A program made the translations under genes and the position numbers. Of a DNA stretch of 49,265 nt, positions 1-49,265 are shown in pieces. The notes under the pieces were generated by a model. That model did no database searches, had not been told where the DNA came from, and saw only the letters and a list, made by a program, of their open reading frames with translations. The number at the start of each line of letters is the position of its first letter. Position 1 is the first letter of the stretch. The stretch lies in IMG/VR virus record IMGVR_UViG_3300045988_047456; one strand, written 5' to 3'. Origin of the DNA: a virus.

Positions 1-834
1 CAGTGCGGAACGATCACGACCGCGACAGTAACTACAATGACAGCAACCATAACTGCAGGAACCACTCAGATCCAGACAACAGTGACAGCAGGATGCGCGA
101 CGGTAACCGCTACCGTTCAGTCATCAACGAGCCAGATTGTAAGTGTTGTACAGTCCGGAGCAATGATGGCAGCCGCCGCGGTACAGGCAGGAATGAGCCA
201 GCTTGTATCTGCAGTAAGCAGTGGATGCAGTCAGGCGCTCGGAATAGCCCAGAGCACAGCAAGCGGCATCTATGGAGCATTTGCCGGAATCAGCCTTTAT
301 GGCGCCGGCGTGAATATGATGTCTGGACTGGTAAATGGTATCAATGCTATGCGTGGAGCTGTTATGGCAGCAGCGGCAAGCGTGGCCAGCGCAGCATCCG
401 CAGCAGTCAACAGCGCCCTGAAGATTCACTCTCCATCAAGGGTCATGGTGGAATCCGGTAAATTTACCGGCCAGGGTCTTGTAGTAGGTATGCAGGATAT
501 GCGCGGAGCCATTCAGGCAGAAGCGCAGAGATCACTGGCAGCGCCAATCCAAGACGCAGCATCGCCCGGAACTAAGAGCCTGGAGATGCCGACGTTCAAC
601 AGGAGTTCGGTGATCAGAGAAACTATTCAGAACTTTACCGGCGGCGGAAACGACAAGCCGGAGAAAGACCCGAAAGATTCAAACCCAACCTTCGTATTCA
701 GTCCGACCTATCAGTTCAACGGAGACGCTCCGGATAAGAAAGATATCCAGGACGCGAACCGCATGAGCCAGAGAGAGTTCGAGAAGATGATGAAGGAATA
801 CCTTAGAAATAAAGGCAGGGTATCATTTGCGTAA
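1..834 (+). CDS. tail tape measure protein, C-terminal part (continues from 45494..49265 across the circular junction)
   Basis: The frame of ORF 37..834 is open back to nt 1. It is continuous with the open + frame leaving the window end once the 55-bp overlap (1..55 = 49211..49265) is collapsed. The sequence is Ala/Gly/Ser/Thr-rich and repetitive. Stop TAA 832..834. Confidence 0.85.
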   Translation, partial: QCGTITTATVTTMTATITAGTTQIQTTVTAGCATVTATVQSSTSQIVSVVQSGAMMAAAAVQAGMSQLVSAVSSGCSQALGIAQSTASGIYGAFAGISLYGAGVNMMSGLVNGINAMRGAVMAAAASVASAASAAVNSALKIHSPSRVMVESGKFTGQGLVVGMQDMRGAIQAEAQRSLAAPIQDAASPGTKSLEMPTFNRSSVIRETIQNFTGGGNDKPEKDPKDSNPTFVFSPTYQFNGDAPDKKDIQDANRMSQREFEKMMKEYLRNKGRVSFA

Positions 835-3394: not shown

Positions 3395-3706
3395 ATGGCA
3401 TATGTTGGACTGGCCACGATCAAGGCCAGCGGAGACATTGACTATGAAGAACTGGAGGCATACGACGAACAACTTCAGTGTCTGATATCTACAGTGGAAG
3501 GCACACTTCCAGGAAGCAGGGGATTCGGTCTTGATCCAGACATTACGGACAAGACACCGGATGATGCCCTGAACCTGTTCGCTATGGACCTTCAGGAAAA
3601 AGTGGAGAAGTTTATTCCTGGCATTGGAATCGCAAATGTATCTGGAAAAATGAACGATTCTTCACTTGAAACACAAATCTACATAGAAAGGAGGGATACG
3701 GAGTGA
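3395..3706 (+). CDS. baseplate wedge protein, gpW/gp25-like
   Basis: 103 aa. 'LISTVEGTLPGSRGFGLDPDI....LQEKVEKFIPGI' fits the GPW_gp25 pattern. It lies immediately upstream of the J-like gene. Confidence 0.6.
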   Translation: MAYVGLATIKASGDIDYEELEAYDEQLQCLISTVEGTLPGSRGFGLDPDITDKTPDDALNLFAMDLQEKVEKFIPGIGIANVSGKMNDSSLETQIYIERRDTE

Positions 3707-4845
3707 TCAAAGAGTTAGAAATTCTTCCTGACGTCAGTTTTATTGGAAATACGACGCTGGAGAGCATAGAATCAGAGATGAAAAGCGACTATGAGAAAAA
3801 GTACAACGAAGTCACCGGAGAAAGCCTGGTTCTGGCCAGATCGGATCCGGCCACCCTGATTTTGTATGCATGTGCGGTACAGTTCTTTCAGGGCTTCAAG
3901 TATATCGATAAAGCCGGAAAAATGGACCTTCTGAAATACACGCAGGGGGACTACCTGGACCACGTCGCAGCTATGAGGGGAATCGCCAGAGAGCCTGCCA
4001 AGCCGGCCAGGGCCATGGTTCGTTTCACTCTTTCAGGAATTCGTCCGGAGACTGTAGAAATTCCACAGGGAACACAGGTCACAGACGGAGAAATCTACTT
4101 CGAAACGGAGAAATATGCGGAGATTAAAGCCGGAGAAGAAAAGGCAGATGTCGAATGCGTATGCCTGGTTTCAGGGGTTGACGGAAACGACCTGCAGCCT
4201 GGCGAGATTGATACCCTGGTAAATCCGATTCCCTATGTGGCCAGCGTGGCCAATATAGAGAAGACGGCCGGCGGGGTGGATATCGAGGACGATGACAGCA
4301 TGAAGGGACGTGTCTACATAGCACCTTCTAAATACTCGGTAGCCGGTCCGGAAGATGCATACAAATACTGGGTCAAAACCTACAACGCAAGTATCTCAGA
4401 CGTACTTGTTAAGAGTGACAATCCGGTGGAAGTTATCATCGAATTCATCATGGAGAACGGAGAGCTGCCGACGGAAGGTATCATCCAGGGGCTGCAGATT
4501 TATTTGTCAGATAAACAGATTCGACCGCTTACCGACAAGGTAAAGGTCAAAGCGCCAGATACGGTGGACTACAAGCTCGATGTGAAATATTACATCAATA
4601 CCAGTGATCTGAAGCGTGCTGACACGATCAAGGCCAACGTGGCTGCTGCCGTAGATCAGTACGTTATCTGGCAGAGAAGCAAGATCGGCCGAGACATTAA
4701 CCCTTCACAGCTCATTCAGATGATGGTATCCGCAGGAGCTAAGAGAGTAGAAGTCAAGCTGCCAGTTTTCCAGGTTGTCGGAGCTACCAACGTGGCAAAG
4801 CTGGTGAGCCAGAATGTGACATACGGAGGTATCGAAGATGATTAA
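3703..4845 (+). CDS. baseplate J-like protein
   Basis: 380 aa. Its GTG start overlaps the upstream stop (GTGA). It lies between the W-like and I-like genes, and size and order are typical of gpJ/XkdT. Confidence 0.65.
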   Translation: MIKELEILPDVSFIGNTTLESIESEMKSDYEKKYNEVTGESLVLARSDPATLILYACAVQFFQGFKYIDKAGKMDLLKYTQGDYLDHVAAMRGIAREPAKPARAMVRFTLSGIRPETVEIPQGTQVTDGEIYFETEKYAEIKAGEEKADVECVCLVSGVDGNDLQPGEIDTLVNPIPYVASVANIEKTAGGVDIEDDDSMKGRVYIAPSKYSVAGPEDAYKYWVKTYNASISDVLVKSDNPVEVIIEFIMENGELPTEGIIQGLQIYLSDKQIRPLTDKVKVKAPDTVDYKLDVKYYINTSDLKRADTIKANVAAAVDQYVIWQRSKIGRDINPSQLIQMMVSAGAKRVEVKLPVFQVVGATNVAKLVSQNVTYGGIEDD

Positions 4846-5752
4846 ATTCACAGAAGGCGGTCTCATTGATATCTGGCCAGAGAAGGATCCGGAAATCCAG
4901 GCTCTCAGTTATGCACTTCAGCAACAGTTTAAGAAGCTGAAAGCCTACGCAGACAAGACCCAGTGCTACAGCGATGTGGACGACCTGGACGAAGACATCC
5001 TGGACTACTTCGCGGTTGAGATGCGAAGTATGTACTATGAGCAGAATCTGGAGATCGAGAGGAAGCGAGAAATCGTTAAGAACACTCTGAAATGGTATAC
5101 CTACGCAGGCGTGCCGGCAACCGTCGCAGAGATGGTCGGGGCAGTCTTCGGATCCGGAAAAATCGTGGAGTGGTTCGACTACGATGAGCCGCCATTCACA
5201 CCTGGAACCTTCGACATCATCACATCGGCGCGGCTGACTCCTGATATCATCGATCAGCTGAACGCGATAATCCAGAAGGCAAAGAACGTCCGGTCGCATA
5301 TCCGCCGGGTAACGATCATCCGAGATGTACACTCAGCAATGCACCTGGCTGCCTTTCAGACGGCCGTACAGGAGTGTACCGTTCTGAATATTATCCGAGA
5401 GGATAAAGAGGCAGGACAGGTCACATACGCAGCCACAGCGGCAGGCACAAGAGACAGAGACAGCTTCGTACTCAACACGACATCTGGAGATGCACAGGCA
5501 GCCCAGGCAGGACGTCAGGGAGCTATTGGCATCGTGGATAAAGCAAGAGGCACAGAAGTTTATAACACTCTGCAGGCAGATGCCGGAATCCAGGCTGAAA
5601 ATCACCTGGCAGCGTTCGGATCCGTAACAGACAACCGAAGCTGCGTAACAAATGAGACTGCAGGTAATGCTGCAGCGCACAGCGCAACCATCGTCGCCCA
5701 AAAGGGAGACGCCTACAATATCACATCATTTATCAAGGAGGAAAAACACTAA
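4838..5752 (+). CDS. tail protein I-like (gpI/XkdU-like) baseplate protein
   Basis: 304 aa, overlapping the J gene by 8 nt. The N-terminal 150 aa ('ILDYFAVEM...KREIVKNTLKWYTYAGVPATVAEMV...IVEWFDY') fit the P2 gpI pattern. Confidence 0.5.
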   Translation: MIKFTEGGLIDIWPEKDPEIQALSYALQQQFKKLKAYADKTQCYSDVDDLDEDILDYFAVEMRSMYYEQNLEIERKREIVKNTLKWYTYAGVPATVAEMVGAVFGSGKIVEWFDYDEPPFTPGTFDIITSARLTPDIIDQLNAIIQKAKNVRSHIRRVTIIRDVHSAMHLAAFQTAVQECTVLNIIREDKEAGQVTYAATAAGTRDRDSFVLNTTSGDAQAAQAGRQGAIGIVDKARGTEVYNTLQADAGIQAENHLAAFGSVTDNRSCVTNETAGNAAAHSATIVAQKGDAYNITSFIKEEKH

Positions 5753-7692
5753 TGTTAATGTGGAATCCCAGTAAATTAACAACCGCAGGAAAAGCCCTCC
5801 TGGCAAAAGCCCAGGCAGGACAGACAAGCATCCAGATCACCAAGGCACAGACTGGATCCGGTTCTTATTCTTCCGGAGAAAACATCGAGAGCAGAACAGC
5901 TCTGAAGACTCCGAAGCAGACCTTCCCGATTCAGAATAAGGTGATCAACGATGCAGACAACACAGTGATTCTGAAGATTGCGATCACAAACAAGAGCGAA
6001 GAAGAAACCCTGAGCACCGGATACGACATCACTGAGTTTGGTATCTTTGCACAGGATCCGCAGAAGGGAGAAATCCTGTATTCCATCGCTACTGCATCCA
6101 CAAGCGATTATATGCCGGCATACAACGGTGTACTTCCGTCAGTGATCAACATGAGTTACTACCTGGAAGTTTCAAACGCTGAGAATGTAACAATCAACAG
6201 TGCCGGAGCTCTGGCTCTTCAGGCCGATCTGGAAGCCCTGGAAGCAAGAGTGACCACCATCGAGAAGAACAAAGTAGAACTGCTCGGAGTAAGAAGAAAA
6301 GTCGGTGTCAGCTCTTCGACATGGGAGCGCATCGGGGACGCTGTCGGCATGGTCTGCAAGGCAGCAGTCGGAAACGGAACCGTTCAGAATGACATGATGA
6401 GCCACTATCCATTCAATGAAATGCGTCCATGTAACCTGGCAGAAGACAGAACTGTCAACGCATACCTGGGAGATGCAACCTTCCAGTGGGATGGCACGAA
6501 CGGGGACGTTATGCTGGAAGTGCCGATGACATACACCGGCCGCTGGTTTGAAACTGATGCAGACGGCGTGAAGTGGGAATACAGAGCTGTATCTTCCGCA
6601 CAGATCGGACACCTTCACCTGGATCACCTGTTTACAGATGGCGCTGATCGCAGAATTTCCGAAAAGGTATACATCCCGATCTTCCCTGGCTCCATTGAAA
6701 CAGTTCAGAGATCAGTGAAGAATAGCCAGGGCACCTATGATCTTAAACAGGTAGATATCCTGAGATCCAAAGCAGGAGTTGTGCCGGCACATAACAAGAC
6801 ACGCGGACAGTTTAGAACCTTATGCAAGGCCAAGGGAGACAACTGGTATCTCGACGACGTATGGGCTATGCATTTCCTGGATACCTGCTTCCTGGTAATG
6901 TTTGCAAACAGCAACGCGCAGGCTACTCTCGGATCCGGACGTACAGAGTTCCCGGAGGATGGAACAAAGGGACTGGCTCTTCAGGAGAGAACCGGCAATT
7001 ACATCACTGTGGCAAAGGACTATGGAAATCGCTTCGCCGTCGGACAGGCAATCTCCATCGGTGCCGGCTTGTGGAGCCAGAGTCTGGCAGCAGACCGCCT
7101 GGTAACTAAAATCGAAGATTCCACCGAAGTAGATAACGCAGTATGCGTATACTTCGACGGCGATCCGGTAGCGATCACATCAACCAGCGTCCTGTGGTCT
7201 TCTATTCAGCCGACAGGAGCAACTATCGGAATGGCAGCACCAAACGGCCGCGTAGAGGGTAAAACAAACGGAATGAGTGCGATCCGTTTCCTCTGGATTG
7301 AAGACTGGTACGGAAATATGTGGCAGTTCAGAGACGGAGATAACATTCAGAAGTACCAGCATTACTACTGCAATGACAGAAGCGCATATGCCGACAAGGT
7401 ATATGATGGCTCATATTTCAAAGTCGGATATGTAGCAGGTACCGCCGAAGGCTATGTGAAAACATTCGGTTTCGATCCGGAATGGCCGGAAATTGAAATC
7501 TGCACAGAAAACGGAGCGTCCAGCAACACCTATTTCTGCGATTACTATTATGCCGCCGAAGGCGGAGAAGTGGTCTTCTCGGGTGGTCACGTGAACTACG
7601 GGGCGTTCTCGGGTCCGTTCGACCGGCGCTGCAACTCCTCGGCTACGTCCTCGTTCTGGAGCATCGGCGGTCGCCCTCAAGCTAGAAAGTGA
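5752..7692 (+). CDS. tail fibre / receptor-binding protein with C-terminal C-type-lectin/FGE-like variable domain (DGR target)
   Basis: 646 aa with a TAATG start overlap. N-terminus 'LTTAGKALLAKAQAG..IQITKAQTGSGSY' resembles a tail-collar fibre. C-terminus 'IRFLWIEDWYGNMWQF' followed by 'FSGGHVNYGAFSGPFDRRCNSSATSSFWSIGGR' is the CLec-type end typical of DGR variable proteins. The VR occupies the last 40 codons. Confidence 0.85.
   Translation: MLMWNPSKLTTAGKALLAKAQAGQTSIQITKAQTGSGSYSSGENIESRTALKTPKQTFPIQNKVINDADNTVILKIAITNKSEEETLSTGYDITEFGIFAQDPQKGEILYSIATASTSDYMPAYNGVLPSVINMSYYLEVSNAENVTINSAGALALQADLEALEARVTTIEKNKVELLGVRRKVGVSSSTWERIGDAVGMVCKAAVGNGTVQNDMMSHYPFNEMRPCNLAEDRTVNAYLGDATFQWDGTNGDVMLEVPMTYTGRWFETDADGVKWEYRAVSSAQIGHLHLDHLFTDGADRRISEKVYIPIFPGSIETVQRSVKNSQGTYDLKQVDILRSKAGVVPAHNKTRGQFRTLCKAKGDNWYLDDVWAMHFLDTCFLVMFANSNAQATLGSGRTEFPEDGTKGLALQERTGNYITVAKDYGNRFAVGQAISIGAGLWSQSLAADRLVTKIEDSTEVDNAVCVYFDGDPVAITSTSVLWSSIQPTGATIGMAAPNGRVEGKTNGMSAIRFLWIEDWYGNMWQFRDGDNIQKYQHYYCNDRSAYADKVYDGSYFKVGYVAGTAEGYVKTFGFDPEWPEIEICTENGASSNTYFCDYYYAAEGGEVVFSGGHVNYGAFSGPFDRRCNSSATSSFWSIGGRPQARK
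7570..7676 (+). repeat. DGR variable repeat (VR)
   Basis: A 107-bp match to 7866..7972 (offset 296) with 100 identities. All 7 mismatches (7576, 7588, 7597, 7607, 7621, 7655, 7661) correspond to A in the TR copy. The invariant GC-rich 3' block CATCGGCGGTCGCCC (7662..7676) looks IMH-like. Confidence 0.9.
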
Positions 7693-7708
7693 CCATTTCA
7701 AGGGGGGA

Positions 7709-7730
7709 CCGGGGGACTTTTCTCCCCCGG
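7709..7730 (+). promoter_or_regulatory. GC-rich hairpin downstream of VR (candidate DGR target-recognition hairpin/cruciform)
   Basis: CCGGGGGA (7709..7716) pairs with TCCCCCGG (7723..7730) around a 6-nt loop, 33 nt after the VR end. No T-tract follows, so it is not a classical terminator. Confidence 0.55.
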
Positions 7731-7865
7731 AGCTTCCGGCAAAGGAACCGTAACACATGCATGCCGGGAGCCCTCTCTCCTGCGAAATTCTGAAGCCGAC
7801 ACAAATGTCGGTCGCAAATAAAAGTAACTCGTAAACTACATAGGGGATAAAGGAACGCGCGATCG

Positions 7866-7972
7866 GTGGTCATCTCGGGTGGTAACGTGAACAACGGGGC
7901 GTACTCGGGTCCGTTCAACCGGCGCTGCAACTCCTCGGCTACGTCCTCGTACTGGAACATCGGCGGTCGCCC
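7866..7972 (+). repeat. DGR template repeat (TR)
   Basis: Non-coding copy of the VR. It carries A at all 7 variable positions and contains several AAC/TAC/ATC codon-equivalents. It lies 169 bp upstream of the RT gene. Confidence 0.9.
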
Positions 7973-8140
7973 ACTTTGTTAATAATCTCATTCCGACATA
8001 TTTCTCAATTTTTGATTTTATAAATATGTCGTTCCTTTATTCGCTGGCCATAGAGCCACCGCCATGCAGAGCCATGGTGCCGCACCGCTTGGTGAAAATG
8101 GGCCGTAAATGGCACCGGTTAGTAGCATGATCGAAAGCCG
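7973..8140 (+). ncRNA. DGR RNA spacer between TR and RT (predicted structured)
   Basis: No ORF. Hairpins: CGACATATTT (7994..8003) with AAATATGTCG (8022..8031); CACC-gctt-GGTG (8083..8094); GGTGCC (8076..8081) with GGCACC (8111..8116). A related CCGACA/TGTCGG hairpin (7796..7811) lies upstream of the TR. Confidence 0.4.
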
Positions 8141-9307
8141 GTGAGGCTAACAAAGAGATTAAATATACCAATGATAACTGAACCAATAAAATTCACAAAG
8201 AGAATCGGCCATCTCTTCGAGAGAGTGGTAGACCTGGATAATATCAAGCTGGCGATCAGAAACGCTGCGAAGCGTAAGAGCGACCGTCCCTCAGTCAGAA
8301 GGATTCTGCTGGACGTTGACAAGTACGCGCAGAAGCTGCAGGAAATCCTGATCACAGAGAGCTGGGTACCCCATGCGTACCACATCCGAGAGATCAACGA
8401 TGGCATTAAGAAAAAGAAACGTATCATCGCAGTACCGCGCTTCTTTCCGGATCAGTGCATTCATCACGCATTTGTCCTGGTATTTAAGGAAGTCGTGGAG
8501 CATGGCTCCTACGAGCATAGCTGCGGATGCGTGCCAGGGAAAGGAACTGACGGAGCCCGGAAGGTTATAAAGCGCTGGGTTGTGAATGATCCAAAAGGGA
8601 CGAGCAAAGTCGCTGTCTTGGATGTGAAGCAGTGCTATCCGACGCTGCCGCATGAACAGCTCCGTCTGAAGCTGGAAAAGCGTATCAAGGACCGGAAGTT
8701 CCTGCGACTTGCCTTTAAGATCATAGCCAGCTATCAGCAGGCCATGGCAAACAAGACGCAGCTGCTGCCGGAAACTATCGCAGTCGGAATTCCCGTCGGC
8801 TTATACACGTCTCCCTGGTTTTTAAACTTTTTCTTTCAGGACCTGGACCACCTGATTGCAGAGAAGTGTGGCCTCAGTCATCTCGTAAGATACGTTGATG
8901 ATATGGTCCTGTTCGATAATTCAAAGAAACGACTGCACGCAGCGATCAGAACAGTCGGAGATTATCTGCAGCATATGCAGATGAGACTGAAAAGCACCTG
9001 GCAGGTGTATCACTTACGGATTCGCCCGCTTGACTTCTTAGGGTTCAAGTTCCATGCGAACGGGAAAATAACCCTCCGGAAGTCAATCCTGTACAGGATA
9101 TCCCGCAAGGCCAGGACAATAGCACGAAAGGGCTATGCTTCAGTAACCAACGCCTCCGGTATGATCAGCTACAAAGGATACATGGATCATTCAGATTCCT
9201 CCGGATTCTATGAGAAATGGGTCCAGCCGTTTATAAATTTCAAAGTTCTGAAAGGAGTAGTAAGCAATGAGAACAGAAAGCAATGTAAAGCCCTCTGCGC
9301 AGCTTGA
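8141..9307 (+). CDS. DGR-type reverse transcriptase
   Basis: 388 aa from GTG 8141, or 378 aa from ATG 8171. RT motifs 'IIAVPRFFPDQCIHHAF', 'DVKQCYPTLPH', 'GIPVGLYTSPWFLNFFF' and catalytic 'YVDD' (8891..8902). Adjacent to the TR/VR pair. Confidence 0.9.
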   Translation: MRLTKRLNIPMITEPIKFTKRIGHLFERVVDLDNIKLAIRNAAKRKSDRPSVRRILLDVDKYAQKLQEILITESWVPHAYHIREINDGIKKKKRIIAVPRFFPDQCIHHAFVLVFKEVVEHGSYEHSCGCVPGKGTDGARKVIKRWVVNDPKGTSKVAVLDVKQCYPTLPHEQLRLKLEKRIKDRKFLRLAFKIIASYQQAMANKTQLLPETIAVGIPVGLYTSPWFLNFFFQDLDHLIAEKCGLSHLVRYVDDMVLFDNSKKRLHAAIRTVGDYLQHMQMRLKSTWQVYHLRIRPLDFLGFKFHANGKITLRKSILYRISRKARTIARKGYASVTNASGMISYKGYMDHSDSSGFYEKWVQPFINFKVLKGVVSNENRKQCKALCAA

Positions 9308-9659
9308 GATCGAAGCATTCCCGAAGAAGGAAGGAGCTGCCTGCACCGTAATCCTGTACGATAATATCGCCGGCCCGTTCACAAAAGACAACGGCGCGGA
9401 TCAGGAGCCATCCACCTACTTCACCTATGACCGGTACGAGGTAGAGACCTACTACAGAGAAGGCCTGGAAGAAAGCGTCCAGAATTCCTTTGATGCATGG
9501 CTTCAGAAGGCCAAAGAGGCCGAAGCAGCCGGCGAACCGCTCACTGAGATCGAGATTCTGCAGCAGACCGTCGAAACACTGACAGCCGCAAACAAGGAAC
9601 TCAGCAGCACCGTAGATGACCTGGTCATCGCATCCCTGGGAGGTGATCTTGATGCATAG
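9267..9659 (+). CDS. XkdW-like tail-fibre-associated protein (hypothetical)
   Basis: 130 aa. A good RBS (AAAGGAG) precedes ATG 9267, which overlaps the RT 3' end by 41 nt. It sits upstream of an XkdX-like gene, as in PBSX-type modules. It is acidic, so not Avd-like. Confidence 0.4.
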   Translation: MRTESNVKPSAQLEIEAFPKKEGAACTVILYDNIAGPFTKDNGADQEPSTYFTYDRYEVETYYREGLEESVQNSFDAWLQKAKEAEAAGEPLTEIEILQQTVETLTAANKELSSTVDDLVIASLGGDLDA

Positions 9660-13295: not shown

Positions 13296-14867
13296 TCAAA
13301 GCATAATAGAAAGGGACTCCCCGTCCCATACACATTTTTTTATTACGTCTTTCACAATAGCATTTTTCTCCGCAGCGGAGAAGGAATCCAGATCACTGAC
13401 AAGCCGGTTAATCTCAGATACCTTTGAGAGCGTGTCCTGCTGCTGCAGGGACCTCTTTCTCTCGACGGCCAGTGCCAGGTTGTGCTCGCGCCGTAGCGCC
13501 TGAATTTCCAGGTCCAGCCGTTCCAATTCGGCCAGAATATACTTCTGCGCGGAAGAATCCGCAGCCAGGGAAAGCGAGGATACCAGGCGGTCGATGCGGG
13601 TCTGACAAGTGTTGATCTTCGATGCGAGGACCTTCGGATCCGGGCCGGATAGCACCTCAGTGTTTTGTTCCGCAAATTTCTGAATGACACCAGGATCCCG
13701 CTTGATCGACTGCAGGAGCTCCAGGACTTTCTGATCCAACAGCTCGCATTTGATGTGGTGAGAATCACAGACTTCTTTCCCCTGCCTCATACGCTTCAGA
13801 CAGTAATACCAGGAGGACACTCCCTCCTTTTTCTTTTTCCTGGACACGCACATAATAGAGCCACAGGAACACCGGAGCACTCCCTTCAGAAGAGGCACGT
13901 CGTACTTCATCGTTTTATCGAATTTGTTCTGCGCGAACCTGGCCTGCACAGCTAACCATTTATCTGCCGGCATGAATGGCTCATGAGCACCTAGGCAGAC
14001 GAGCCACTTCTCCGGAGGCTGCATCTGGTGCTTTTTGTTTTTCTGAGTCGTCCGGCCATAGATCATGACGCCGCAGGTACCGTCCCATTGTTCCCTGGGT
14101 GACTCAATATCCATCTGGCAGCCCTTGGCAGCGTAATAGTCGTAGACTTCCGGAGTAGCCTGTGCGCAGTACGGCATGGTCAGAATTTTATGCAGCTGGG
14201 TAGTTGAAAAGAAAGCACCGGTACGCGTCCGGATACCCTGCTTCTTGAAAGCCGTCTCCATGCTCTGAAGAGAGTAGCCGTTCTGCAGAAAAGTATCAAA
14301 GATCCAGGTTACATACTTCACACCTTCCGGATCCGGAACGATGGAACAGTGTTTTTTACCATTCGCCTCGATGCGGGTACGAACATATCCTTCAGGAGGA
14401 TTCCCTCCGGTCCAGTATCCCTTCTTTGCAAGGCCGATCATATTATCCGCCACCCTGGCTGCGATGGTCTCACGTTCCATCTGAGCAAAGACGACGGTAA
14501 CATACATCATGGCGCGCCCGATCGGCGTGGACGTGTCAATATTTTCTTTGATAGAGATAAACTTCACATGGTGCTCTTCCAGGATTGCGTAGATATTCGC
14601 AAAGTCCCGGACATCCCTGGAAAGACGGTCCAGCTGATACACGATCAGAATGTCGCAGTTCCCGGCGGCGATGTCTACCAGGAGACGCTGCAGATCAGGA
14701 CGCTTGATGTTCGCACCAGTGAAAGCCTCGTCCTGGTATTCCAGAAAGGAATCCACCTGTCCGGAGAATTTCATTTCCACATAGTCCCGGCACATCCGGA
14801 ACTGGTTGTCGATGGAATCTGAGTGATCAGAATAGATCGACTTCCTGCCATAGCAACAAATGTTCAT
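13296..14867 (-). CDS. large serine recombinase (integrase)
   Basis: 523 aa. It has an N-terminal resolvase domain ('YGRKSIYSD', 'VYQLDRLSRD', 'ERETIAARV'), a recombinase domain, a Cys-rich zinc ribbon ('CSCGSIMC...YYCLKR...CDSH') and a C-terminal coiled coil. Confidence 0.9.
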   Translation of the reverse strand: MNICCYGRKSIYSDHSDSIDNQFRMCRDYVEMKFSGQVDSFLEYQDEAFTGANIKRPDLQRLLVDIAAGNCDILIVYQLDRLSRDVRDFANIYAILEEHHVKFISIKENIDTSTPIGRAMMYVTVVFAQMERETIAARVADNMIGLAKKGYWTGGNPPEGYVRTRIEANGKKHCSIVPDPEGVKYVTWIFDTFLQNGYSLQSMETAFKKQGIRTRTGAFFSTTQLHKILTMPYCAQATPEVYDYYAAKGCQMDIESPREQWDGTCGVMIYGRTTQKNKKHQMQPPEKWLVCLGAHEPFMPADKWLAVQARFAQNKFDKTMKYDVPLLKGVLRCSCGSIMCVSRKKKKEGVSSWYYCLKRMRQGKEVCDSHHIKCELLDQKVLELLQSIKRDPGVIQKFAEQNTEVLSGPDPKVLASKINTCQTRIDRLVSSLSLAADSSAQKYILAELERLDLEIQALRREHNLALAVERKRSLQQQDTLSKVSEINRLVSDLDSFSAAEKNAIVKDVIKKCVWDGESLSIML

Positions 14868-16018: not shown

Positions 16019-16051
16019 GGGACTGGGTTGTTTTACCCAAGTCCCCCTTTT
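16019..16051. terminator. hairpin overlapping the repressor stop codon (possible bidirectional terminator)
   Basis: GGGACTGGGT (16019..16028) pairs with ACCCAAGTCCC (16035..16045) with one bulge. It is followed by CCTTTT on the + strand. Confidence 0.4.
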
Positions 16052-16494
16052 GTGTCCTCGTTTTTAAGAGGCGGGAACTTCTGCTCAAGTTCTTCCGGCG
16101 TATCAGGGACATCTGAATAATCCCCTGCGGATTCCTGCATAGAAGCAACAACATCCTTCATGAACTCCAGGATCGCATTTCGGGTGTCTGCTTTCAGACT
16201 GACATATTTTTCAATCAGCATCTGATCAGCAGCAGTCAATTTATATTTTTTCGCCAAGGCTTCCAGCTCGTTGTCCGGATCCGGAACACGCATATCGCCA
16301 ATTCCATCTCGAAGCCATTCTTCGTTCACTCCAAATTCCCTGCATATAAGAGAGATCACAGGAGCTGACGGATTTCTTCGTCCGCTTTCATAACCGGTAA
16401 TTGTATTCTGTACAGATCCAATTCTGGAAGCGAAAGCCTCCTGCGTCAGATCAAATTCTCGACGAATCTTTTTAATTCGATCTCCAATCGTCAT
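16033..16494 (-). CDS. CI-like repressor, XRE-family HTH
   Basis: ATG 16494 is preceded by AGGAGG at an 8-nt spacing (the track starts at GTG 16503). 'IKKIRREFDLTQEAFASRIGSVQNTITGYESGRRNPS' is an HTH_XRE motif. It is divergent from the early operon. Confidence 0.85.
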   Translation of the reverse strand: MTIGDRIKKIRREFDLTQEAFASRIGSVQNTITGYESGRRNPSAPVISLICREFGVNEEWLRDGIGDMRVPDPDNELEALAKKYKLTAADQMLIEKYVSLKADTRNAILEFMKDVVASMQESAGDYSDVPDTPEELEQKFPPLKNEDTKGGLG

Positions 16495-16517
16495 TTTTTT
16501 CACCTCCTATGGCTTGA

Positions 16518-24661: not shown

Positions 24662-27418
24662 ATGAATACGGAAATGGCGGACCTCGACAGCATAGTCGAT
24701 TACAGAAGTGAATATGGCGTCATTAAGAAAGCGAAGATCACAGGTGATCAGTTGATAGGTCTCTGCCCTTTCCACGATGACAGCAACAACAGTTTCTCGG
24801 TGAATTTAAAGACCGGACAATGGCATTGTTTTGCAGAAGACCGCGGCGGAAACTTCCTGGACTTCTATGCAGAGTTAAATGGCTGCGATACAAAGGAAGC
24901 CTATGCAAAGATCATGGAAAAATATGGAGTTGACACCGGAGAGCAGAAAAAACTGGAAGCGCAGAAAAAAAGCTACAGTTTAACACAGTATGCCTTCGAG
25001 AAAAAGCTCCCGGAAGAATGGCTGGCCAGTGAGTGTTTCTTAAGTACCGTCAAAGATAAGCGAGCCGGTGCTTCTTACATGAAAATCCCGTATCTGGACG
25101 AGAACCGGAAAGAATCAACCTATCGAAAGCGCTTTGCACATAAGGACTTCCGGTGGAAATATGGCTCTTCCGGAAAGATCGGGCTGTACGGAGAATGGAG
25201 ACTGCCGGAGATCCGCAGCGTAGGCTATGCGGCCATGGTGGAAGGAGAATCCGACTCACAGTCAATGTGGTACATGGGTATCAGCTGCCTGGGCGTTCCA
25301 GGGGCGTCCATGTTCAAGCCGCACCAGGCAGCCATGCTGCAGGACTTAAAGATTTACCTGCACGTTGAACCGGATCAGGGCGGCGAGACGTTCCTCCGGA
25401 AAATGCTGGCAGGATTAAGAGAAGGCGGATTCATCGGAGAAGTATACCGCTTTTCCTGCAGCAGGATCCAGGGATGCAAAGACCCGTCAGATGTCTATGT
25501 CAAATTCGGAAAAGAGGAAGCACAGAAGAAGATTCTGCAGCTGATCAAAAATGCAGAGAAGATCGACCTGGATGCTCCGGAAGAAATCCCGGAAGCCATA
25601 CAGGGAGCCCCGGTGAATTTAAGACAGCCAGAGAGCTGGATATATTCAGATAAAGGGATCAGCCACATCGATGAGAAGCAGTACACACCAAAGATGGTCT
25701 GCAGGACTCCGATCATATTAACGCAGCGTCTCCGGAGCATTGAGTCCGGAGAGGAAAAGATAGAGATCGCCTTCAAGAGAGATGGATCCTGGCACAAAGC
25801 TATCTTCCCGCGATCAACAATATTCACAGCAAGAGGCATCACCGTCCTGGCCGATCTTGGATGCACCGTCACATCGGAAAATGCAAAGCAGGTCGTCCGG
25901 TTCCTGGCGGCTCTGGAAGCAGAGAACATTGATATCATTCAGAAAGCGGATGCGACATCCACATTCGGATGGCAGCCAGGAAAACGTTTCATTCCAGGAA
26001 GGGAACAGGGAATCGTGCTGGACATTGATCCGAGCCAGAAGGGAACGGCCATGGCTTACTGCCAGGTCGGAGAGATGGAGAAGTGGGTGGAAACCATGAA
26101 ACCCCACCGGGACAGGGACAAGTTCAGATTTATCCTGGCGGCCAGCTTCGCAGCTCCCCTGCTGCGGATCCTGAAGCAGAGAATCTTCTTCGTGTATAAC
26201 TGGGGAGGCTCCAAGGGCGGAAAGACTGCAGCACTTAAAGCAGCCCTGTCTGCCTGGGGTGATCCGGAACGATTGATGGTCAATTTCAATGCAACGCAGG
26301 TCGGCCTGGAACGTACCGCCAGCTTCTTCTGTGATCTTCCGCTGGGAATCGATGAAAGGCAGCTGGCCGGAAAGAATCAGGAAGGCCTGGAGAAGACCAT
26401 CTACATGATTGCATCCGGTACCGGAAAGATAAGAGGAAGCAAGGGTGGCGGCCTTCAGACCACGCATCAGTGGCGAACAGTGGCTCTGGCCACAGGAGAA
26501 GAACCGCTATCCACAGAAACCTCGCAGACCGGCGTCAGCACTCGTGTCCTGGAAATCTACGGTGGGCCATTCAATGATGAAAAGGCAGCCAGTAAGATGC
26601 ATCAGGACGCAGGAGCAAACTGCGGATGGGCTGGCCCGGAGTTCATCGATCATGTGATCAGCGTCTCAGAGAGATCCATCTGCGAGAAATATGAAGAGAT
26701 GGTGAAATTCGTCTCCGGGATCGCGAACGGGAAATCCGGAAGCCATGTGGCAGGAGTCAGCGCAGTGGCCCTGGCCGATGCCATGATCGATACCTGGTTT
26801 TTTGCACAGCCAGTGGAAAACAATGTGGGTAACTCCGCTGAAAATAATATGAATGTGGATAACTTGAAAATCCTGGATTCCTCATGGGAACGGGCAAAGC
26901 AGATGGCAGCAGCTATCCTTCAGGAACAGATGAACGCAGATGTCGGAGATGTTAATGAGAACGCGGTCCAGTTCGTTGTGGACTGGGTTCTGCAGAATCG
27001 GCTCTACTTCGGAGAGAAAGCCATCGGCACCTGCCTGGGTACCTTTTCAGAATCCGGAAACACCGCATACATATTCCCCTCGGCATTGAACCAGGCACTC
27101 ACGAAGGCCGGGTACAGCGCCAGAAAAACTCTGAAATACATGGCTGACAATGGCCTGATCACGTCGCAGGAACGCTCTGATCACAAAGGAAAGACCTACC
27201 AGGTCGTGAAACGATTTGACAACCGCCTCTGTAAGTTTGTGGAGTTCTTCGTCGGAAAACTTTCTGAAAAAGAGGAAGCAATAGACATCGATGACGATGA
27301 GGAAGAAACAAAAACATCGAAGCCAGCAGAGAAAAAACAGCAGTACAAACAGGAAAGCCTGACGGACAAAGACGGGTTTATACCAGTCGATGAAGGCTAC
27401 GAACTTCCATTCAATTAG
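24662..27418 (+). CDS. primase-helicase (CHC2 zinc finger, Toprim, C-terminal P-loop helicase domain)
   Basis: 918 aa. 'CPFHDDSNNSFSVNLKTGQWHCF' is a CHC2 finger, 'MVEGESDSQS' is Toprim-like, and 'NWGGSKGGKTAALKAA' is a Walker A. Confidence 0.85.
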   Translation: MNTEMADLDSIVDYRSEYGVIKKAKITGDQLIGLCPFHDDSNNSFSVNLKTGQWHCFAEDRGGNFLDFYAELNGCDTKEAYAKIMEKYGVDTGEQKKLEAQKKSYSLTQYAFEKKLPEEWLASECFLSTVKDKRAGASYMKIPYLDENRKESTYRKRFAHKDFRWKYGSSGKIGLYGEWRLPEIRSVGYAAMVEGESDSQSMWYMGISCLGVPGASMFKPHQAAMLQDLKIYLHVEPDQGGETFLRKMLAGLREGGFIGEVYRFSCSRIQGCKDPSDVYVKFGKEEAQKKILQLIKNAEKIDLDAPEEIPEAIQGAPVNLRQPESWIYSDKGISHIDEKQYTPKMVCRTPIILTQRLRSIESGEEKIEIAFKRDGSWHKAIFPRSTIFTARGITVLADLGCTVTSENAKQVVRFLAALEAENIDIIQKADATSTFGWQPGKRFIPGREQGIVLDIDPSQKGTAMAYCQVGEMEKWVETMKPHRDRDKFRFILAASFAAPLLRILKQRIFFVYNWGGSKGGKTAALKAALSAWGDPERLMVNFNATQVGLERTASFFCDLPLGIDERQLAGKNQEGLEKTIYMIASGTGKIRGSKGGGLQTTHQWRTVALATGEEPLSTETSQTGVSTRVLEIYGGPFNDEKAASKMHQDAGANCGWAGPEFIDHVISVSERSICEKYEEMVKFVSGIANGKSGSHVAGVSAVALADAMIDTWFFAQPVENNVGNSAENNMNVDNLKILDSSWERAKQMAAAILQEQMNADVGDVNENAVQFVVDWVLQNRLYFGEKAIGTCLGTFSESGNTAYIFPSALNQALTKAGYSARKTLKYMADNGLITSQERSDHKGKTYQVVKRFDNRLCKFVEFFVGKLSEKEEAIDIDDDEEETKTSKPAEKKQQYKQESLTDKDGFIPVDEGYELPFN

Positions 27419-27426
27419 CTCCTAAA

Positions 27427-27717
27427 TGTTACTCCTTTTTAAAAGGAGTAACATTGGAGTAACAAAAGGAGTAACAAAAAAAGCCAGTATTTATGCGGCT
27501 TTAGAGGGTATGTTACTCCTGTTACTCCTAAAATAGAGATATATAGTGTTTTTATGGAAATTTGTACCCTGTGTACCCAAAAACGGTACAAATGGTACAA
27601 ATTTTAAAAAATTTCATTGTGTATTTAAAAAAAGGAGTAACAGGAGTAACAATGCCCGGAGCCCTAGTAAAATCAAGGGTTTTCGTGTTACTCCTTTTTA
27701 AAATCAAAAGGAGTAAC
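27427..27717. repeat. iteron-type origin of replication
   Basis: Ten copies of GGAGTAAC or its complement GTTACTCC at 27428, 27445, 27456, 27468, 27512, 27521, 27634, 27643, 27687 and 27710. Two pairs form perfect palindromes. The central AT-rich core carries a second inverted repeat, AAATTTGTACC...GGTACAAATTT. It lies directly after the primase-helicase. Confidence 0.7.
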
Positions 27718-32960: not shown

Positions 32961-34325
32961 ATGGGAGATTATATGAAGATGGAACGCCGAAGGCTTTCAG
33001 ACCTGAGACCTGCGGAATATAACCCAAGGGTTCCGCTTCAGCCGGAGGATAAAGAGTACCAGGACATAAAATGCAGCATCGAAGAGAACGGATACCTGGA
33101 TCCAATCGTGATCAATTACGACGGAACCATCATAAAAGGCCATCAGCGCCGCACAGTTATGATGGACCTCGGAATAGAGGAAGCAGAAGTCGTTGTTCTC
33201 AATATCAGAGACAAAGGAAAGGAAAAGCAGGCCAATATCGCCCTGAATAAGATAACTGGACGATGGGATGAGCTGAAGCTCAGGGACCTACTCTTGGATT
33301 TGGAACTAAATGAGTATGATCTTGCAGCGACTGGATTCTCTACTAGCGAGCTGGAAGACCTCTGCGTGGACTTGGAGAAAGATGCCGAAGCAGAAGATGA
33401 CGACTTCGACCCTGAAGAAGAATACAAAAAAATCGATGAGCCCATAACCAGAAGGGGAGATATCTGGATTTTAGGGCGTCATCGATTAATGTGCGGAGAC
33501 AGTACGTCTCCATCTGACATAGCAGAACTGATGGCCGGTGAAGAGGCCGACCTCATCATAACAGACCCGCCATACAACGTCAACTATGGAGGAAAAACTG
33601 AATTTATGAAGGATTCTGGCAGAGGCCAGGGACAGTCATGCATTCAGAACGACGACATGGATGAGGAAAGTTTTCACGACTTTCTGTTTGACGCTTACGG
33701 ATCAGCTGTCAGTATCATGCGGCCAGGCGCCGCAATTTATGTATTTCATTCCGATTCGCATGGCGAAACATTCAGGAGGGCCTTCAGAGAAGCTGGCCTG
33801 AAGCTGAGCGAGTGCCTGATTTGGGAGAAAAACTCCTTCGTGTTAGGCCGGAGCGATTACCAGTGGATTCATGAACCCATTTTATATGGGTGGAAGGAAG
33901 GCGCTGGCCATTATTTCATTAATGACCGTACTCAGGCTACGGTTCTCATGGATGAAGAGCTGGATCTCGAATCCATGAAGAAAAAAGACCTGATCACATA
34001 CATCGAACAGATCCGGGAGGCGTTCAAAGATCAGACTACGGTTTTATTTGAGAATAAGCCTTTAAGAAACGACATCCATCCAACCATGAAGCCGGTACCG
34101 CTGATTGGAAGACTTATGAAGAATTCCAGTAAACCGGGATGGAATGTCACGGACCTGTTCGGAGGTGGTGGTTCCACCCTCATGGCCGCGGAACAGCTGA
34201 ACCGCGCAGCCTATCTGATGGAGCTTGACGAGAAGTTCTGTGACGTAATCGTCCGCAGGTGGGAAGAGTATACAGGAGAAAAGGCCTTCCGTTTATCGGA
34301 TTCAGACCTAAACCTGCAGCTATGA
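32961..34325 (+). CDS. ParB-like nuclease domain fused to an N6A/N4C DNA methyltransferase
   Basis: 454 aa. N-terminus 'YNPRV..IEENGYLDPIVINYDGTIIKGHQRR' is ParB/Srx-like. 'LIITDPPYNVNYGG' is motif IV and the C-terminal 'DLFGGGGSTLMAAEQL' is motif I (beta-class order). Confidence 0.8.
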   Translation: MGDYMKMERRRLSDLRPAEYNPRVPLQPEDKEYQDIKCSIEENGYLDPIVINYDGTIIKGHQRRTVMMDLGIEEAEVVVLNIRDKGKEKQANIALNKITGRWDELKLRDLLLDLELNEYDLAATGFSTSELEDLCVDLEKDAEAEDDDFDPEEEYKKIDEPITRRGDIWILGRHRLMCGDSTSPSDIAELMAGEEADLIITDPPYNVNYGGKTEFMKDSGRGQGQSCIQNDDMDEESFHDFLFDAYGSAVSIMRPGAAIYVFHSDSHGETFRRAFREAGLKLSECLIWEKNSFVLGRSDYQWIHEPILYGWKEGAGHYFINDRTQATVLMDEELDLESMKKKDLITYIEQIREAFKDQTTVLFENKPLRNDIHPTMKPVPLIGRLMKNSSKPGWNVTDLFGGGGSTLMAAEQLNRAAYLMELDEKFCDVIVRRWEEYTGEKAFRLSDSDLNLQL

Positions 34326-48400: not shown

Positions 48401-49265
48401 AGTACCCTCGGCTCTCTGCTTGATGCAGGGTGGCAGGCACTGTCCTCTGCAGCGTCCGCAGCAGTCGATGCATTGCCTGGTGCAGTGTCCGGAGGACTGA
48501 GCGCCCTTGGAAGTGCGATTACTACTGTAGGAGGAACTCTTGGAAATCTTCTGGATTCAGGATGGGAGGCATTGAAGTCGGCGGCTTCCGCTGCTGCAGA
48601 TGCCATGCCTGGTCTGATTCAGGGCGGATTTAGCGCCATGACGACAGCTATCTCCGGAATCGGAGACGGTCTCGGTTCCTTGCTTGATGCAGGATGGGAG
48701 GCACTGAAGTCCGGAGCTTCAGCAGCGGCTGAGGCGGTCAAAGGCGCCTGGGAAGGCGTGAAGGATTTCTTCGGAGGAATCTGGGACGCCATTACCGGTG
48801 GAGGAAAATCTGCAGAAGTTTCAACACCGACAGTAAATACCACTGCGGCGCAGCCACAGCAGATGACCGTCCAGGTGGACACATCAGCCATTGAGGCGGC
48901 CAATACTGCAGTGCAGGCATTACAAGCAAGCATTGAGGCAGCAAAGACCTCCATGACAAGTATGGGAACCGGCTTCACTGGTTTGTCAGCAACGATCACA
49001 TCACAGCTGACAAGCGTACAGTCCAGCATCACCACAAGTACAACGTCATGGAGCACATCTGTACAGATGGGAATGACGCTCATGCAGACGGCCATGCAGA
49101 CCGGAATCACGACAATGAGGTCAACACTTCAGACCGGATTCACAAGCATGGGAACAACGTCCATGACCTCATTCACTCTGATCACAACAGCGGTCAGAAC
49201 CAGCATGACACAGTGCGGAACGATCACGACCGCGACAGTAACTACAATGACAGCAACCATAACTG
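45494..49265 (+). CDS. tail tape measure protein, N-terminal part (runs off the window end; total 1516 aa with 1..834)
   Basis: GTG 45494 after AGGAGGTGA. 'SDYKINIKIAGQLEKSFSAAMKAAKTGL...', then the conserved TMP core 'TSKTATESAQALEYMSLAGW...LMEAYIGVGGTMKNLGVP...GVMANRGIKGSEAGNALNAIMVNL...EERNAALAAIGGKQH'. It is absent from the ORF track only because it has no stop inside the window. Confidence 0.9.
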   Translation, partial: MSDYKINIKIAGQLEKSFSAAMKAAKTGLKGLSTIGKIGAAGLGAAGAAIAAVTAASVKTGSTFEAAMSSTAATAGATAEEYDKLKAAAMQMGRETSKTATESAQALEYMSLAGWTVDQSIAGLPSVLRLSEATGLDLARTSDLVTDSMSACGVTVDGLADYLNICAKANNKSNQTAEQLMEAYIGVGGTMKNLGVPITESATALGVMANRGIKGSEAGNALNAIMVNLTSGAGQAGTMMEKLGLSAFDSAGNFKGLKGTLTELNTKLSGMTQEERNAALAAIGGKQHVDALNDLLQGLNATTADGAIEWDALANELQNADGALEDMAKTKLDNLNGDMAIFQSALEDTGIKIYDNLNKPLRAAVQYGTQEIYKLSDALVSGGFSGFVGEIGSVLADGIVQISAYGPKVVNMATALTTSFLTGIRNNAGAIGDGAAEIGASFVSGIIRIVPRILQTGTQLLDEFLKGVDTRLPELMTLATKVVEQFSSGITSHLPSIASSAVSIATTLAQGLGDFVPALITAGADAIVAIADGLAGGSPELITATEEAISKIMDAVVQAAPKLLQAGLTLAQSIGKGLMDGVSNFFTDLGNGNASLSQGVAAFAPLLLIGGKIAPVFKKATDAVKALSPALKGLGSKAGTAFQVLANFPSIAKQFVIDSGGMKNAIASIAKGGLSKIGGMFKAIASPAGIAVAAIAVLTAAFLHLWNTNEGFRSAISGIWSQITSTISSFGQSIVSSLNGLGFNFQNITQVLSAAWNGFCSLLAPVFVGAFQLIADTIQAVTGVISGIIQTIASIIRGDWSGAMQGIQTITSSVWNFILNIINTIGSTICGVINAFLSLIGVDWQVSWDSIKNVASNVWSGIQSVIQGGLSIIQGIISVVMDVIHGNWSGAWETIKGAASAAAGALPGLVSGGLNLMQSVITGIGSTLGSLLDSGWELLKSAASAAVDALPGLVSGGLSALGSAISAVGSTLGSLLDAGWQALSSAASAAVDALPGAVSGGLSALGSAITTVGGTLGNLLDSGWEALKSAASAAADAMPGLIQGGFSAMTTAISGIGDGLGSLLDAGWEALKSGASAAAEAVKGAWEGVKDFFGGIWDAITGGGKSAEVSTPTVNTTAAQPQQMTVQVDTSAIEAANTAVQALQASIEAAKTSMTSMGTGFTGLSATITSQLTSVQSSITTSTTSWSTSVQMGMTLMQTAMQTGITTMRSTLQTGFTSMGTTSMTSFTLITTAVRTSMTQCGTITTATVTTMTATIT
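48167..48750 (+). repeat. 132-bp (44-aa) tandem repeats within the tape measure gene
   Basis: The W(E/Q) codon pairs recur at 48167, 48299, 48431, 48563 and 48695, exactly 132 nt apart. Unit is about 'GWEALKSAASAAVDALPGLVSGGLSALGSAISAVGSTLGSLLDA'. Confidence 0.8.
49211..49265 (+). repeat. 55-bp exact terminal overlap with 1..55 (circular assembly signature)
   Basis: CAGTGCGGAACGATCACGACCGCGACAGTAACTACAATGACAGCAACCATAACTG is present at both ends. Confidence 0.95.

Follow-up and report, generated by a model that had tools for sequence, protein, structure and literature searches.

A probable diversity-generating retroelement without accessory gene, and the adenine-specific erosion of its template repeat, in a human-gut phage

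Introduction

Do two nearly identical repeats beside a reverse transcriptase (RT) gene make a diversity-generating retroelement (DGR), and what does it mean when the repeat taken to be the template has itself changed? We asked these questions of positions 5752 to 9307 of the virus record IMGVR_UViG_3300045988_047456 (IMG/VR), whose 49,265 nucleotides are hereafter called the window. A tail-fibre gene ends there in a variable repeat (VR), a non-coding copy, the template repeat (TR), lies downstream, and an RT gene follows. An original prediction, made from the letters of the DNA, had read this arrangement as a DGR that diversifies the tip of the tail fibre, and this reading passed in every part that could be tested. 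As a DGR the locus is ordinary, since most of the temperate phages with contractile tails in the human gut have been reported to carry such cassettes, and 84% of high-quality human-gut Myoviridae genomes have one (PMC8241571). The system is thus common in kind; what goes beyond the ordinary is the erosion of its template, together with evidence for a transfer from VR to TR.

Results

VR and TR differ at template adenines only

Compared base by base, VR and TR are 107 nt long, start 296 nt apart, and agree at 100 positions. The seven mismatches that had been listed (VR/TR: 7576 T/A, 7588 C/A, 7597 T/A, 7607 T/A, 7621 G/A, 7655 T/A and 7661 G/A) were reproduced exactly, and the amino-acid changes derived from them (I>F, N>H, N>Y, Y>F, N>D, Y>F and N>S) were correct. 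All seven fall on the 17 adenines of the TR, as had been said, and the chance that seven random mismatches among 107 positions would do so is P = 7.5e-7. The coordinates of the repeats were right as well; their 3' edge is less sharp than it had seemed, because position 7677/7973 is also a T/A pair. A repeat finder independently returned VR and TR as the longest repeat family of the window. Moreover, a degenerate pattern with N at each TR adenine matched these two copies alone and was never matched in 100 shuffles; the window thus has no further target VR. Read in the VR frame, nine TR adenines stand at the first codon position, eight at the second and none at the third. They belong to 11 codons, namely six AAC, two TAC, two ATC and one ACG, whereas the usual TR of the family has 10 AAC. 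The VR ends 16 nt before the stop codon of the fibre gene.

The VR is hypervariable across samples

We then compared loci that encode an identical RT protein or a 92%-identical one, or that lie on contigs sharing the 3' flank of the TR; the comparison is one between samples and not at the level of reads. The adenine-restricted variation expected of the VR was borne out. There are 35 distinct VRs in 41 loci, and all 26 adenine columns of the usual TR are polymorphic in them, with a mean of 3.77 alleles and a heterozygosity of 0.60; of the other columns 16 out of 81 are polymorphic, mostly as lineage markers (heterozygosity 0.031). When each VR was set against its own TR, 531 of the 550 mismatches counted over 40 loci were at TR adenines, and on average 54% of the TR adenines were changed in the VR. 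Genomes with 0 or 1 difference over 1818 nt of the fibre gene have VRs that differ at 15 to 18 of the 107 positions. More widely, among 79 viral contigs the VR-TR-RT layout and its adenine-specific mismatches could be recognised in 41, at RT identities of 37 to 99%.

The RT is closest to the prototype DGR enzyme

The best match of the RT among PDB sequences was chain A of 8ub7 (E 1.6e-14), group II intron and retron RTs following at 2e-10 or weaker. Over its aligned part this chain has 100% identity with the prototype DGR RT, brt of Bordetella phage BPP-1; a literature search for 8UB7 found no paper, and the identity of the chain was set by sequence. A tblastn search of deposited phages gave 131 records, all below 60% identity and mostly of known DGR-carrying types, led by LBR48, Butyrivibrio Arawn and FP_Epona and including crAss-like, Bacteroides and Bordetella phages. 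The best RT protein match among deposited phages was 36%. With bRT as the best solved relative, DGR-type phage matches and a canonical IGNYTSQ in distant relatives, the predicted membership in the DGR clade is supported. The predicted start of the gene, 169 nt past the TR, held in part: the frame can be read from GTG 8141, but this codon falls within the structured RNA RT-18 described below, and the real start is ATG 8171, as in all public gene calls.

Motif 4 of the RT reads VGL[YF]TSP in the window and in all relatives of at least 54% identity, and IGNYTSQ in relatives of at most 47%. The canonical (I/V/L)GxxxSQ signature is therefore retained in its (I/V/L)G part, with SQ replaced by SP. 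Schillinger et al. (PMC3521204) found SQ in 90% of DGR RTs and counted SP among the variant endings of 15 out of 155, possibly errors or inactivations. Since SP is already among the known variant endings, it is a minority state and no reason to exclude an RT from the DGRs. Here SP marks a large clade with hypervariable VRs. The RT protein of the window recurs unchanged in 10 loci, all of which have different VRs, and the metagenome collection has it in 565 blocks.

One relative, L131 (Logan SRR12324977 contig, 3920-4648), has an RT frame that is broken just past motif 4, between SPWF and FKLF, and that is called at 242 aa. Its TR is intact (26 adenines) and its VR strongly diversified despite the frameshift. 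Either the gene was inactivated recently, or the break is an error of assembly within a T/A-rich run.

The target is a tail fibre with a probable C-type-lectin-fold tip

PHROG 5302, 'tail protein', covers residues 16-641 of the fibre, whose gene sits after Baseplate_J and P2 gpI-like genes in an order kept in all relatives. The VR encodes the last ~40 residues of the C-terminal domain. The 317 residues of this domain have 1744 representative homologues, which in the best 150 stand at or near the protein C-terminus, behind varied N-termini. About 120 homologous fibres have in common the scaffold GGEVVxSGGxVxxGxxSGPFxRxCxxSAxxSxWxxGGRPQARK, where x is hypervariable. A profile of 25 diverse family members, searched against PDB sequences, had a single match, 5VF4 (TaqVP, the DGR variable protein of Thermus aquaticus), at E 2e-6 and in three collinear stretches that include the VR-encoded end.

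An AlphaFold2 model of the full-length fibre, built on an alignment of 75-98% identity, was unusable, with a mean predicted local distance difference test score (pLDDT) of 46 and about 25 over the C-terminal 160 residues. The model of the C-terminal domain, built on a 25-sequence alignment of representatives of ~30-50% identity, reached a pLDDT of 87.8 and a predicted template modelling score of 0.84. In a Foldseek search of this model against the PDB, TaqVP chains were the sole matches at E<=0.001 (E 1.7e-5, probability 1.00, TM-score 0.42), and its BFVD matches were tail-collar fibres, crAss-like tail fibres, and proteins that are TvpA-like or annotated as formylglycine-generating enzymes (FGE). 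A Pfam search of the C-terminal half of the fibre at E<=10 found nothing, neither a lectin nor an FGE domain; over the 25 family members it gave one weak FGE-sulfatase match (E 0.007). Altogether, profile and model support the predicted C-type-lectin fold of the fibre tip, the modest TM-score being accounted for by an inserted beta-rich subdomain. The tip is presumably the receptor-binding surface.

Conserved elements surround the repeats

The homology of VR and TR stops at the GC-rich element CATCGGCGGTCGCCC, and the flanks beyond it are unrelated. Such a 3' element is a near-universal DGR feature according to the survey by Wu et al. (PMC5758913). The VR is followed after 33 nt by a GC-rich hairpin, and a hairpin of this type is absent 3' of the TR. 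The locus thus has both a GC-rich element in the position of the initiation of mutagenic homing (IMH) site and a GC-rich inverted repeat past the VR, as DGRs do. The GGGGG/CCCCC-type core of the hairpin is kept in most of 27 relatives (37-99% RT identity), while the base of the stem is compensatory across them (CC/GG, TAC/GTA, TGTT/AACA, CAC/GTG, CAT/ATG and GC/GC); in a few distant loci an AT-rich hairpin takes its place. Its folding energy taken alone is not significant (z -1.1). We consider this structure a candidate target-site hairpin or cruciform, which agrees with the target-site logic of BPP-1 (PMC3240598, PMC5758913). A further small hairpin, CCGACA-CAAA-TGTCGG at 7793-7810 in the VR-TR spacer, is kept in close relatives, and the region is replaced in distant ones.

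The TR is bracketed by the two arms of a long-range RNA helix, the first of which ends 8 nt before it, and the second arm is directly preceded by a hairpin in which positions 7996-8003 pair with 8022-8029. Across 16 relatives, both sides have changed in 11 of the 16 pairs of the helix and in seven of the eight pairs of the hairpin (18 of 24 in all). In the hairpin 93.5% of the alignment cells are paired, and in the two structures together 91.5%, compared with 37-54% when the partners were slid; none of 500 shuffles came up to the observed values. Directly 3' of the TR, an alignment of 16 relatives (61-99% RT identity) has ACTTTGT (7973-7979) without any variation amid varying neighbour sequence, and this stretch may be where priming takes place. 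Between TR and RT lies the RNA motif RT-18, matched over its full length (model positions 1-84 of 84). It is the sole Rfam family in the window, and neither group II intron nor retron RNA families were found in a search of the whole window. RT-18 ends in AAAGAG, which resembles a Shine-Dalgarno sequence, 13 nt before ATG 8171. All of 19 related loci have it at the same point of the TR-RT gap, which makes 20 of 20 with the window.

The TR has lost adenines

The TR had been expected to stay invariant, as the term 'invariant' used by Benler et al. (PMC6199706) also implies. This expectation failed, both in the family and in the window, for 47 loci contain 18 distinct TRs. The usual TR, present in 24 of the 47, has 26 adenines, and that of the window has 17. 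The nine differences between them are all at adenines (P 8.7e-7), which are now G, C or T, and the VR of the window carries the same nine bases. Compared with L002, a locus with an intact TR, the window has no difference over 1818 nt of the fibre gene, none over 189 nt of spacer and two over 1335 nt of spacer RNA and RT, thus 2 mismatches in 3342 nt of flank, against 9 in the 107 nt of the TR. Other TRs are eroded as well: L132 has 14 adenines, L012 has 19 and L003 has 20, with smaller losses in L022, L005 and L006. In the window, L132, L012 and L003 the losses are of adenines only, and the flanks are near-identical to those of genomes with intact TRs. Among six near-identical genomes (the window, L002, L003, L005, L007 and L010) the TR is altered in three.

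The order of events can be read best in L012. The 5' half of its TR equals its own VR, and the same complete VR occurs in L013 and L014, both of which have intact TRs; it follows that the VR came first and that the TR was then converted to it. This pattern would best fit VR-to-TR gene conversion. In the window, the seven VR/TR differences interleave with the nine shared changes, down to adjacent bases (TR 7902/7903 and 7950/7951). The simplest history would be that the entire tract was converted first and that mutagenic homing then acted again, at least once, to give the seven differences; patchy conversion is a possible alternative. The most eroded TR, that of L132 (ENA ERZ28638625 scaffold_81, 3614-3720), has lost 12 adenine sites. 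At one of them its VR keeps the ancestral A and its TR has T, so this TR change cannot come from the present VR, and more than one kind of event must have been at work. Overall, gene conversion from VR to TR between the two 107-nt repeats is the most likely route of erosion.

Erosion has a cost in diversity, since with the loss of adenines the theoretical repertoire falls from ~2.2e15 to ~1.2e10 peptides. The window and L132 have four identical TR changes, which give Ala at codon 12, Arg at codon 20 and an altered first base in codon 27; Ala and Arg are also common at these codon 12 and 20 positions in VRs, which hints that favoured residues become hard-coded in the TR. We tentatively propose, at somewhat less than even odds, that in this phage family information also flows backward from VR to TR, by gene conversion or by mis-homing, so that a selected mutagenised tip is written into the template, its favoured residues are hard-coded and the search space shrinks heritably.

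Three other accounts of the altered TRs were weighed. We consider it unlikely, although worth keeping in mind, that mutagenised cDNA homes by mistake directly into the TR without any VR-to-TR recombination. Both repeats have the same GC-rich 3' element and 5' homology, and the T of the L132 TR opposite an ancestral A in the VR would be expected of such an event. In BPP-1, a TR that is given the IMH of the VR becomes a homing target. However, the TR bases of L012 equal a VR that pre-existed in L013 and L014, which an independent random cDNA would not match, and the TR has no conserved downstream hairpin. Gene conversion thus accounts better for L012.

It is improbable that the cassette of the window is a decaying, inactive DGR, with VR/TR differences that are historical and an adenine loss that is the first step of decay. 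The TR has indeed lost nine of 26 adenines, a relative (L131) has a frameshifted RT, and a 2026 preprint predicts progressive TR adenine loss in a stable environment, via point mutation (10.64898/2026.02.18.706561). Yet the RT open reading frame (ORF) is intact and encodes the protein found in 10 loci with all-different VRs; RT-18, the helix around the TR and the target hairpin are all preserved; the interleaving of the seven and the nine changes is simpler to obtain by later homing than by single-base conversion patches; and 17 adenines still allow ~1e10 peptides.

Very little speaks for the altered TRs being assembly artefacts in which reads of VR variants were threaded through a near-identical TR. 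The two repeats are near-identical and 296 nt apart, VR populations are heterogeneous, and the sequences of L003 and L005 come from Logan assemblies, which use small k. Nevertheless, the 55-nt terminal overlap of the window suggests k=55, and its nine changes (TR offsets 33-84) are all at most 54 nt from unique flank, so that, to judge from the coordinates, each should be linked to the flank within one 55-mer from reads. A second, independent assembly whose name gives k119, longer than the repeat, has an identical TR and VR; L006 (named k141) confirms the change seen in L005; and all changes of L012 and L132 are likewise anchored to the flank.

Table 1. Features of the locus and of its surroundings in the window
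Feature	Position	Strand	Evidence or remark
Target gene, tail fibre, 646 aa, N-terminal tail-collar fibre domain	5752-7692	+	PF12571 residues 9-156; PHROG 5302
C-terminal 317-aa variable-protein domain, predicted TaqVP-like C-type-lectin fold with beta-rich insert	6739-7689	+	
VR, in frame, encodes VVFSGGHVNYGAFSGPFDRRCNSSATSSFWSIGGRP	7570-7676	+	Repeat finder, base-by-base alignment, degenerate pattern
GC-rich 3' element of VR, CATCGGCGGTCGCCC, IMH-like position	7662-7676	+	Identical to TR 7958-7972
GC-rich hairpin CCGGGGGA-CTTTTC-TCCCCCGG	7709-7730	+	Folded structure, stem conservation
TR-bracketing long-range RNA helix, 5' arm	7842-7857	+	Inverted repeat; minimum free energy and centroid folds; covariation
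TR, non-coding, 17 adenines, eroded form of the usual 26-adenine TR of the family	7866-7972	+	
ACTTTGTT, directly 3' of TR, candidate cDNA-initiation or priming region	7973-7980	+	Invariant alignment columns
Hairpin directly 5' of the 3' arm of the helix	7996-8029	+	Covariation
TR-bracketing helix, 3' arm	8030-8045	+	Inverted repeat, folds, covariation
RT-18 RNA (Rfam RF03021), in spacer-RNA position between TR and RT	8083-8157	+	74.6 bits; gathering score 41.3
DGR RT, 378 aa, YVDD, motif 4 VGLYTSP	8171-9307	+	PF00078 (RVT_1); PHROG 1423, E 4.5e-82
Acidic protein, 130 aa, isoelectric point 4.1	9267-9659	+	Start overlaps last 41 nt of RT
Large serine recombinase	13296-14867	-	
cI-type helix-turn-helix repressor	16033-16503	-	

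No accessory gene is recognisable

A Pfam search of the 33 small ORFs of the genome matched neither Avd (PF05635) nor any other accessory gene, and neither the 189-nt gap between VR and TR nor the 198-nt gap between TR and RT holds a plus-strand ORF of at least 40 aa. According to Wu et al. (PMC5758913), avd is present in 74% of 372 DGRs, the accessory-less architecture A in 75 of the 372, and Avd-independent homing has been proposed. About a quarter of the catalogued DGRs are thus without avd, which is not a universal DGR feature.

Of 79 related viral loci, 63 have the ORF of a 130-aa acidic protein directly behind the RT gene, loci with RT identities as low as ~37% among them. The protein itself had no Pfam or PHROG match, and a relative of it, P0414, carries the tail assembly chaperone domain PF16778. 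A role as a DGR accessory gene like the CH1 genes, which are also acidic, was considered and not adopted, the counterpart in LBR48 being unrelated and the relative having the chaperone domain. The protein probably serves as a chaperone in fibre assembly and not in the DGR.

The locus belongs to a temperate phage of the human gut

The first 55 nt of the window (1-55) recur as an exact copy at 49211-49265, the k=55 signature of a circularly closed assembly, and this points to a complete phage genome of ~49.2 kb. Genes for structure and lysis include terminase gpA, a lambda-type portal, capsid and cement proteins, tail tube FII, Baseplate_J, a P2 gpI-like protein, holin and endolysin. Tail tube FII, Baseplate_J and the gpI-like protein form a P2-like tail module and hence indicate the contractile-tail type; the serine recombinase and the cI-type repressor indicate a temperate phage. 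The same element is embedded in contigs of up to 226 kb and therefore occurs as a prophage. The exact fibre protein is also found on the ENA contig ERZ28572079 scaffold_1072, from a human sample, SAMEA2784513, whose ENA assemblies are ERZ28572079 and ERZ27250587. The window is a complete genome of a temperate phage of the human gut with a tail of the contractile type. Relatives lie in a Dysosmobacter metagenome-assembled genome and others are labelled by their sources Lachnospiraceae, Faecalibacterium or Eubacteriales, and the host is probably a gut clostridial Firmicute. A megablast search of 5752-9307 against deposited phages gave zero nucleotide-level matches; the lineage is known from metagenomes only.

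Some further observations concern the rest of the genome. Beyond the endolysin, related loci differ, with T2SSE/T2SSF-like genes or PAPS reductases and one tyrosine-integrase match; the lysogeny and junction modules are thus exchanged among close relatives. A 132-nt tandem repeat (2.5 copies, 70% identity) at 48284-48613, close to the junction of the contig and on the upstream side of the baseplate genes, is probably inside a tape-measure-like gene that spans the window ends. A short tandem array, AAAAGGAGTAAC x 3.3, at 27441-27479, consists of Shine-Dalgarno-like units just 3' of a primase/DUF927 gene (24662-27418). Upstream of the terminase, a DNA methylase gene (N6_N4_Mtase; 32961-34325, plus strand) has a weak, below-cutoff match to a ParB N-terminal domain. 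No tRNA genes were found in the window.

Discussion

We put the probability at about 93% that the region is a DGR of architecture A of Wu et al., in which target, TR and RT are compactly arranged and no accessory gene is present. The mechanism would be as follows. A transcript would carry the TR in a large loop closed by a helix of 15-16 bp, with the RT-18 structure after it; for the RT, whose gene lies just downstream, this transcript would be the template and probably also the primer scaffold. The RT would copy C, G and U faithfully and insert any base opposite adenine. The cDNA would then take the place of the VR in the 3'-terminal part of the tail-fibre gene, where targeting could use the common GC-rich 3' element and the conserved hairpin that lies past the VR and not past the TR. 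As a result, 11 codons would be recoded on a tip predicted to have a C-type-lectin fold.

Several points weigh against this interpretation. The TM-score to TaqVP is low and Pfam was negative, so the fold assignment rests on Foldseek and profile statistics. Motif 4 has SP instead of SQ, and the same survey that lists this ending ranks it as a rare exception (PMC3521204). No Avd homologue turned up among the 33 small ORFs, so the Bordetella mechanism, which needs a bRT-Avd complex, is not directly transferable. The free energy of the RNA from TR to RT (7835-8170) is no better than that of shuffled sequences (z +0.36), so the case for RNA structure is one of covariation. A scan of 7500-8300 found no plus-strand sigma-70-type promoter between the fibre gene and the RT, and no terminator either; the template RNA may be part of a late transcript. 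Finally, the hypervariation is one between samples, and the seven VR/TR differences could predate the erosion if conversion was patchy.

As to an unrelated RT (group II intron, retron or Abi/DRT) beside a repeat that arose by chance or duplication, we give it hardly any credence: the best NCBIfam match is indeed a group II intron RT/maturase, with weak DRT and retron matches, and JGI labels one relative 'retron-type', but the NCBIfam matches were rejected as far below cut-offs (100 vs 300 bits), bRT is the best solved relative, RT-18 was found and no group II intron or retron RNA family, and the adenine-only mismatches (P 7e-7) recur in dozens of loci.

Given a DGR, the locus matters in several ways. 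That a clade both large and common is evidently active with SP and without Avd limits how far the bRT-Avd mechanism of Bordetella can be generalised; it likewise limits the idea that the SQ motif explains adenine mutagenesis. The orphan motif RT-18 gains a concrete setting as the spacer RNA of an accessory-less, SP-type DGR class, beside a covarying helix that brackets the template, and the two together provide a defined RNA for priming tests. Adenine-only TR erosion in near-identical genomes offers an empirical handle on how DGRs lock in good solutions or decay. If true, VR-to-TR transfer would amount to a natural means, used fairly often, of tuning a DGR or winding it down, and would be much faster than the point-mutation route of current theory. 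Our literature search, which was not exhaustive, found no report of natural adenine-specific TR erosion or of VR-to-TR transfer, only the theoretical treatment of the preprint.

Comparison with known systems

The locus resembles the BPP-1 DGR (mtd-avd-TR-brt) in many respects. In both, a tail-fibre tip is diversified, the VR is placed 3'-terminally in the target gene, the TR contains AAC codons and precedes the RT, and a GC-rich 3' element, a GC-rich hairpin past the VR and a structured RNA between TR and RT are present; bRT is, moreover, the closest solved relative of the RT studied here. However, BPP-1 has avd and the window has none, motif 4 is IGSLTSQ in bRT and VGLYTSP in the window, and the spacer RNA is RT-10 in BPP-1 (per Weinberg et al.) and RT-18 here. 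In the window, moreover, VR and TR are homologous only as far as the GC-rich element and lack an extended imperfect IMH/IMH* pair, and the host of BPP-1 is proteobacterial, that of the window phage probably a gut Firmicute.

The closest class by layout is architecture A1 (TR-RT core) as it appears in the relevant parts of Wu et al. 2018 (PMC5758913), in which target, TR and RT are on one strand without avd, HRDC, MSL or CH1. The window differs in that its lineage is absent from deposited phage genomes at the nucleotide level and in having an RNA structure, none being described for the class in those parts of the survey. Among Firmicute phages, Lactobacillus LBR48, Butyrivibrio Arawn/Idris and Faecalibacterium FP_Epona have RTs only 28-36% identical to that of the window and yet the same gene order, that is a tail protein, a non-coding gap of ~0.4 kb, RT, a small ORF, an XkdX-like gene, and holin and/or endolysin. 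The small ORF overlaps the RT end in LBR48 and FP_Epona, and the XkdX-like gene is annotated or noted in FP_Epona and Arawn. The 130-aa ORF and the small ORF of LBR48 show no similarity.

With TaqVP (5VF4), the VR-encoded C-terminal strands align over GGxxxxGxxAGxxxxxxxxxxxSxxWxxGxR. The identity is 12-15%, and the protein of the window differs in its beta-rich insert and in the N-terminus of a phage tail-collar fibre.

Lastly, RT-1 to RT-19 were described by Weinberg et al. 2017 (PMC5737381) as motifs near RT genes, RT-10 lying between the TR of BPP-1 and its RT, and these authors speculated that other RT motifs serve other DGRs (PMC5737381). RT-18 (RF03021) lies in the TR-RT gap of the window, where RT-10 lies in BPP-1. 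Whereas it was originally known only to be 'near RT genes', it is found here inside a DGR with VRs that vary across samples, and this in all 20 of the loci compared.

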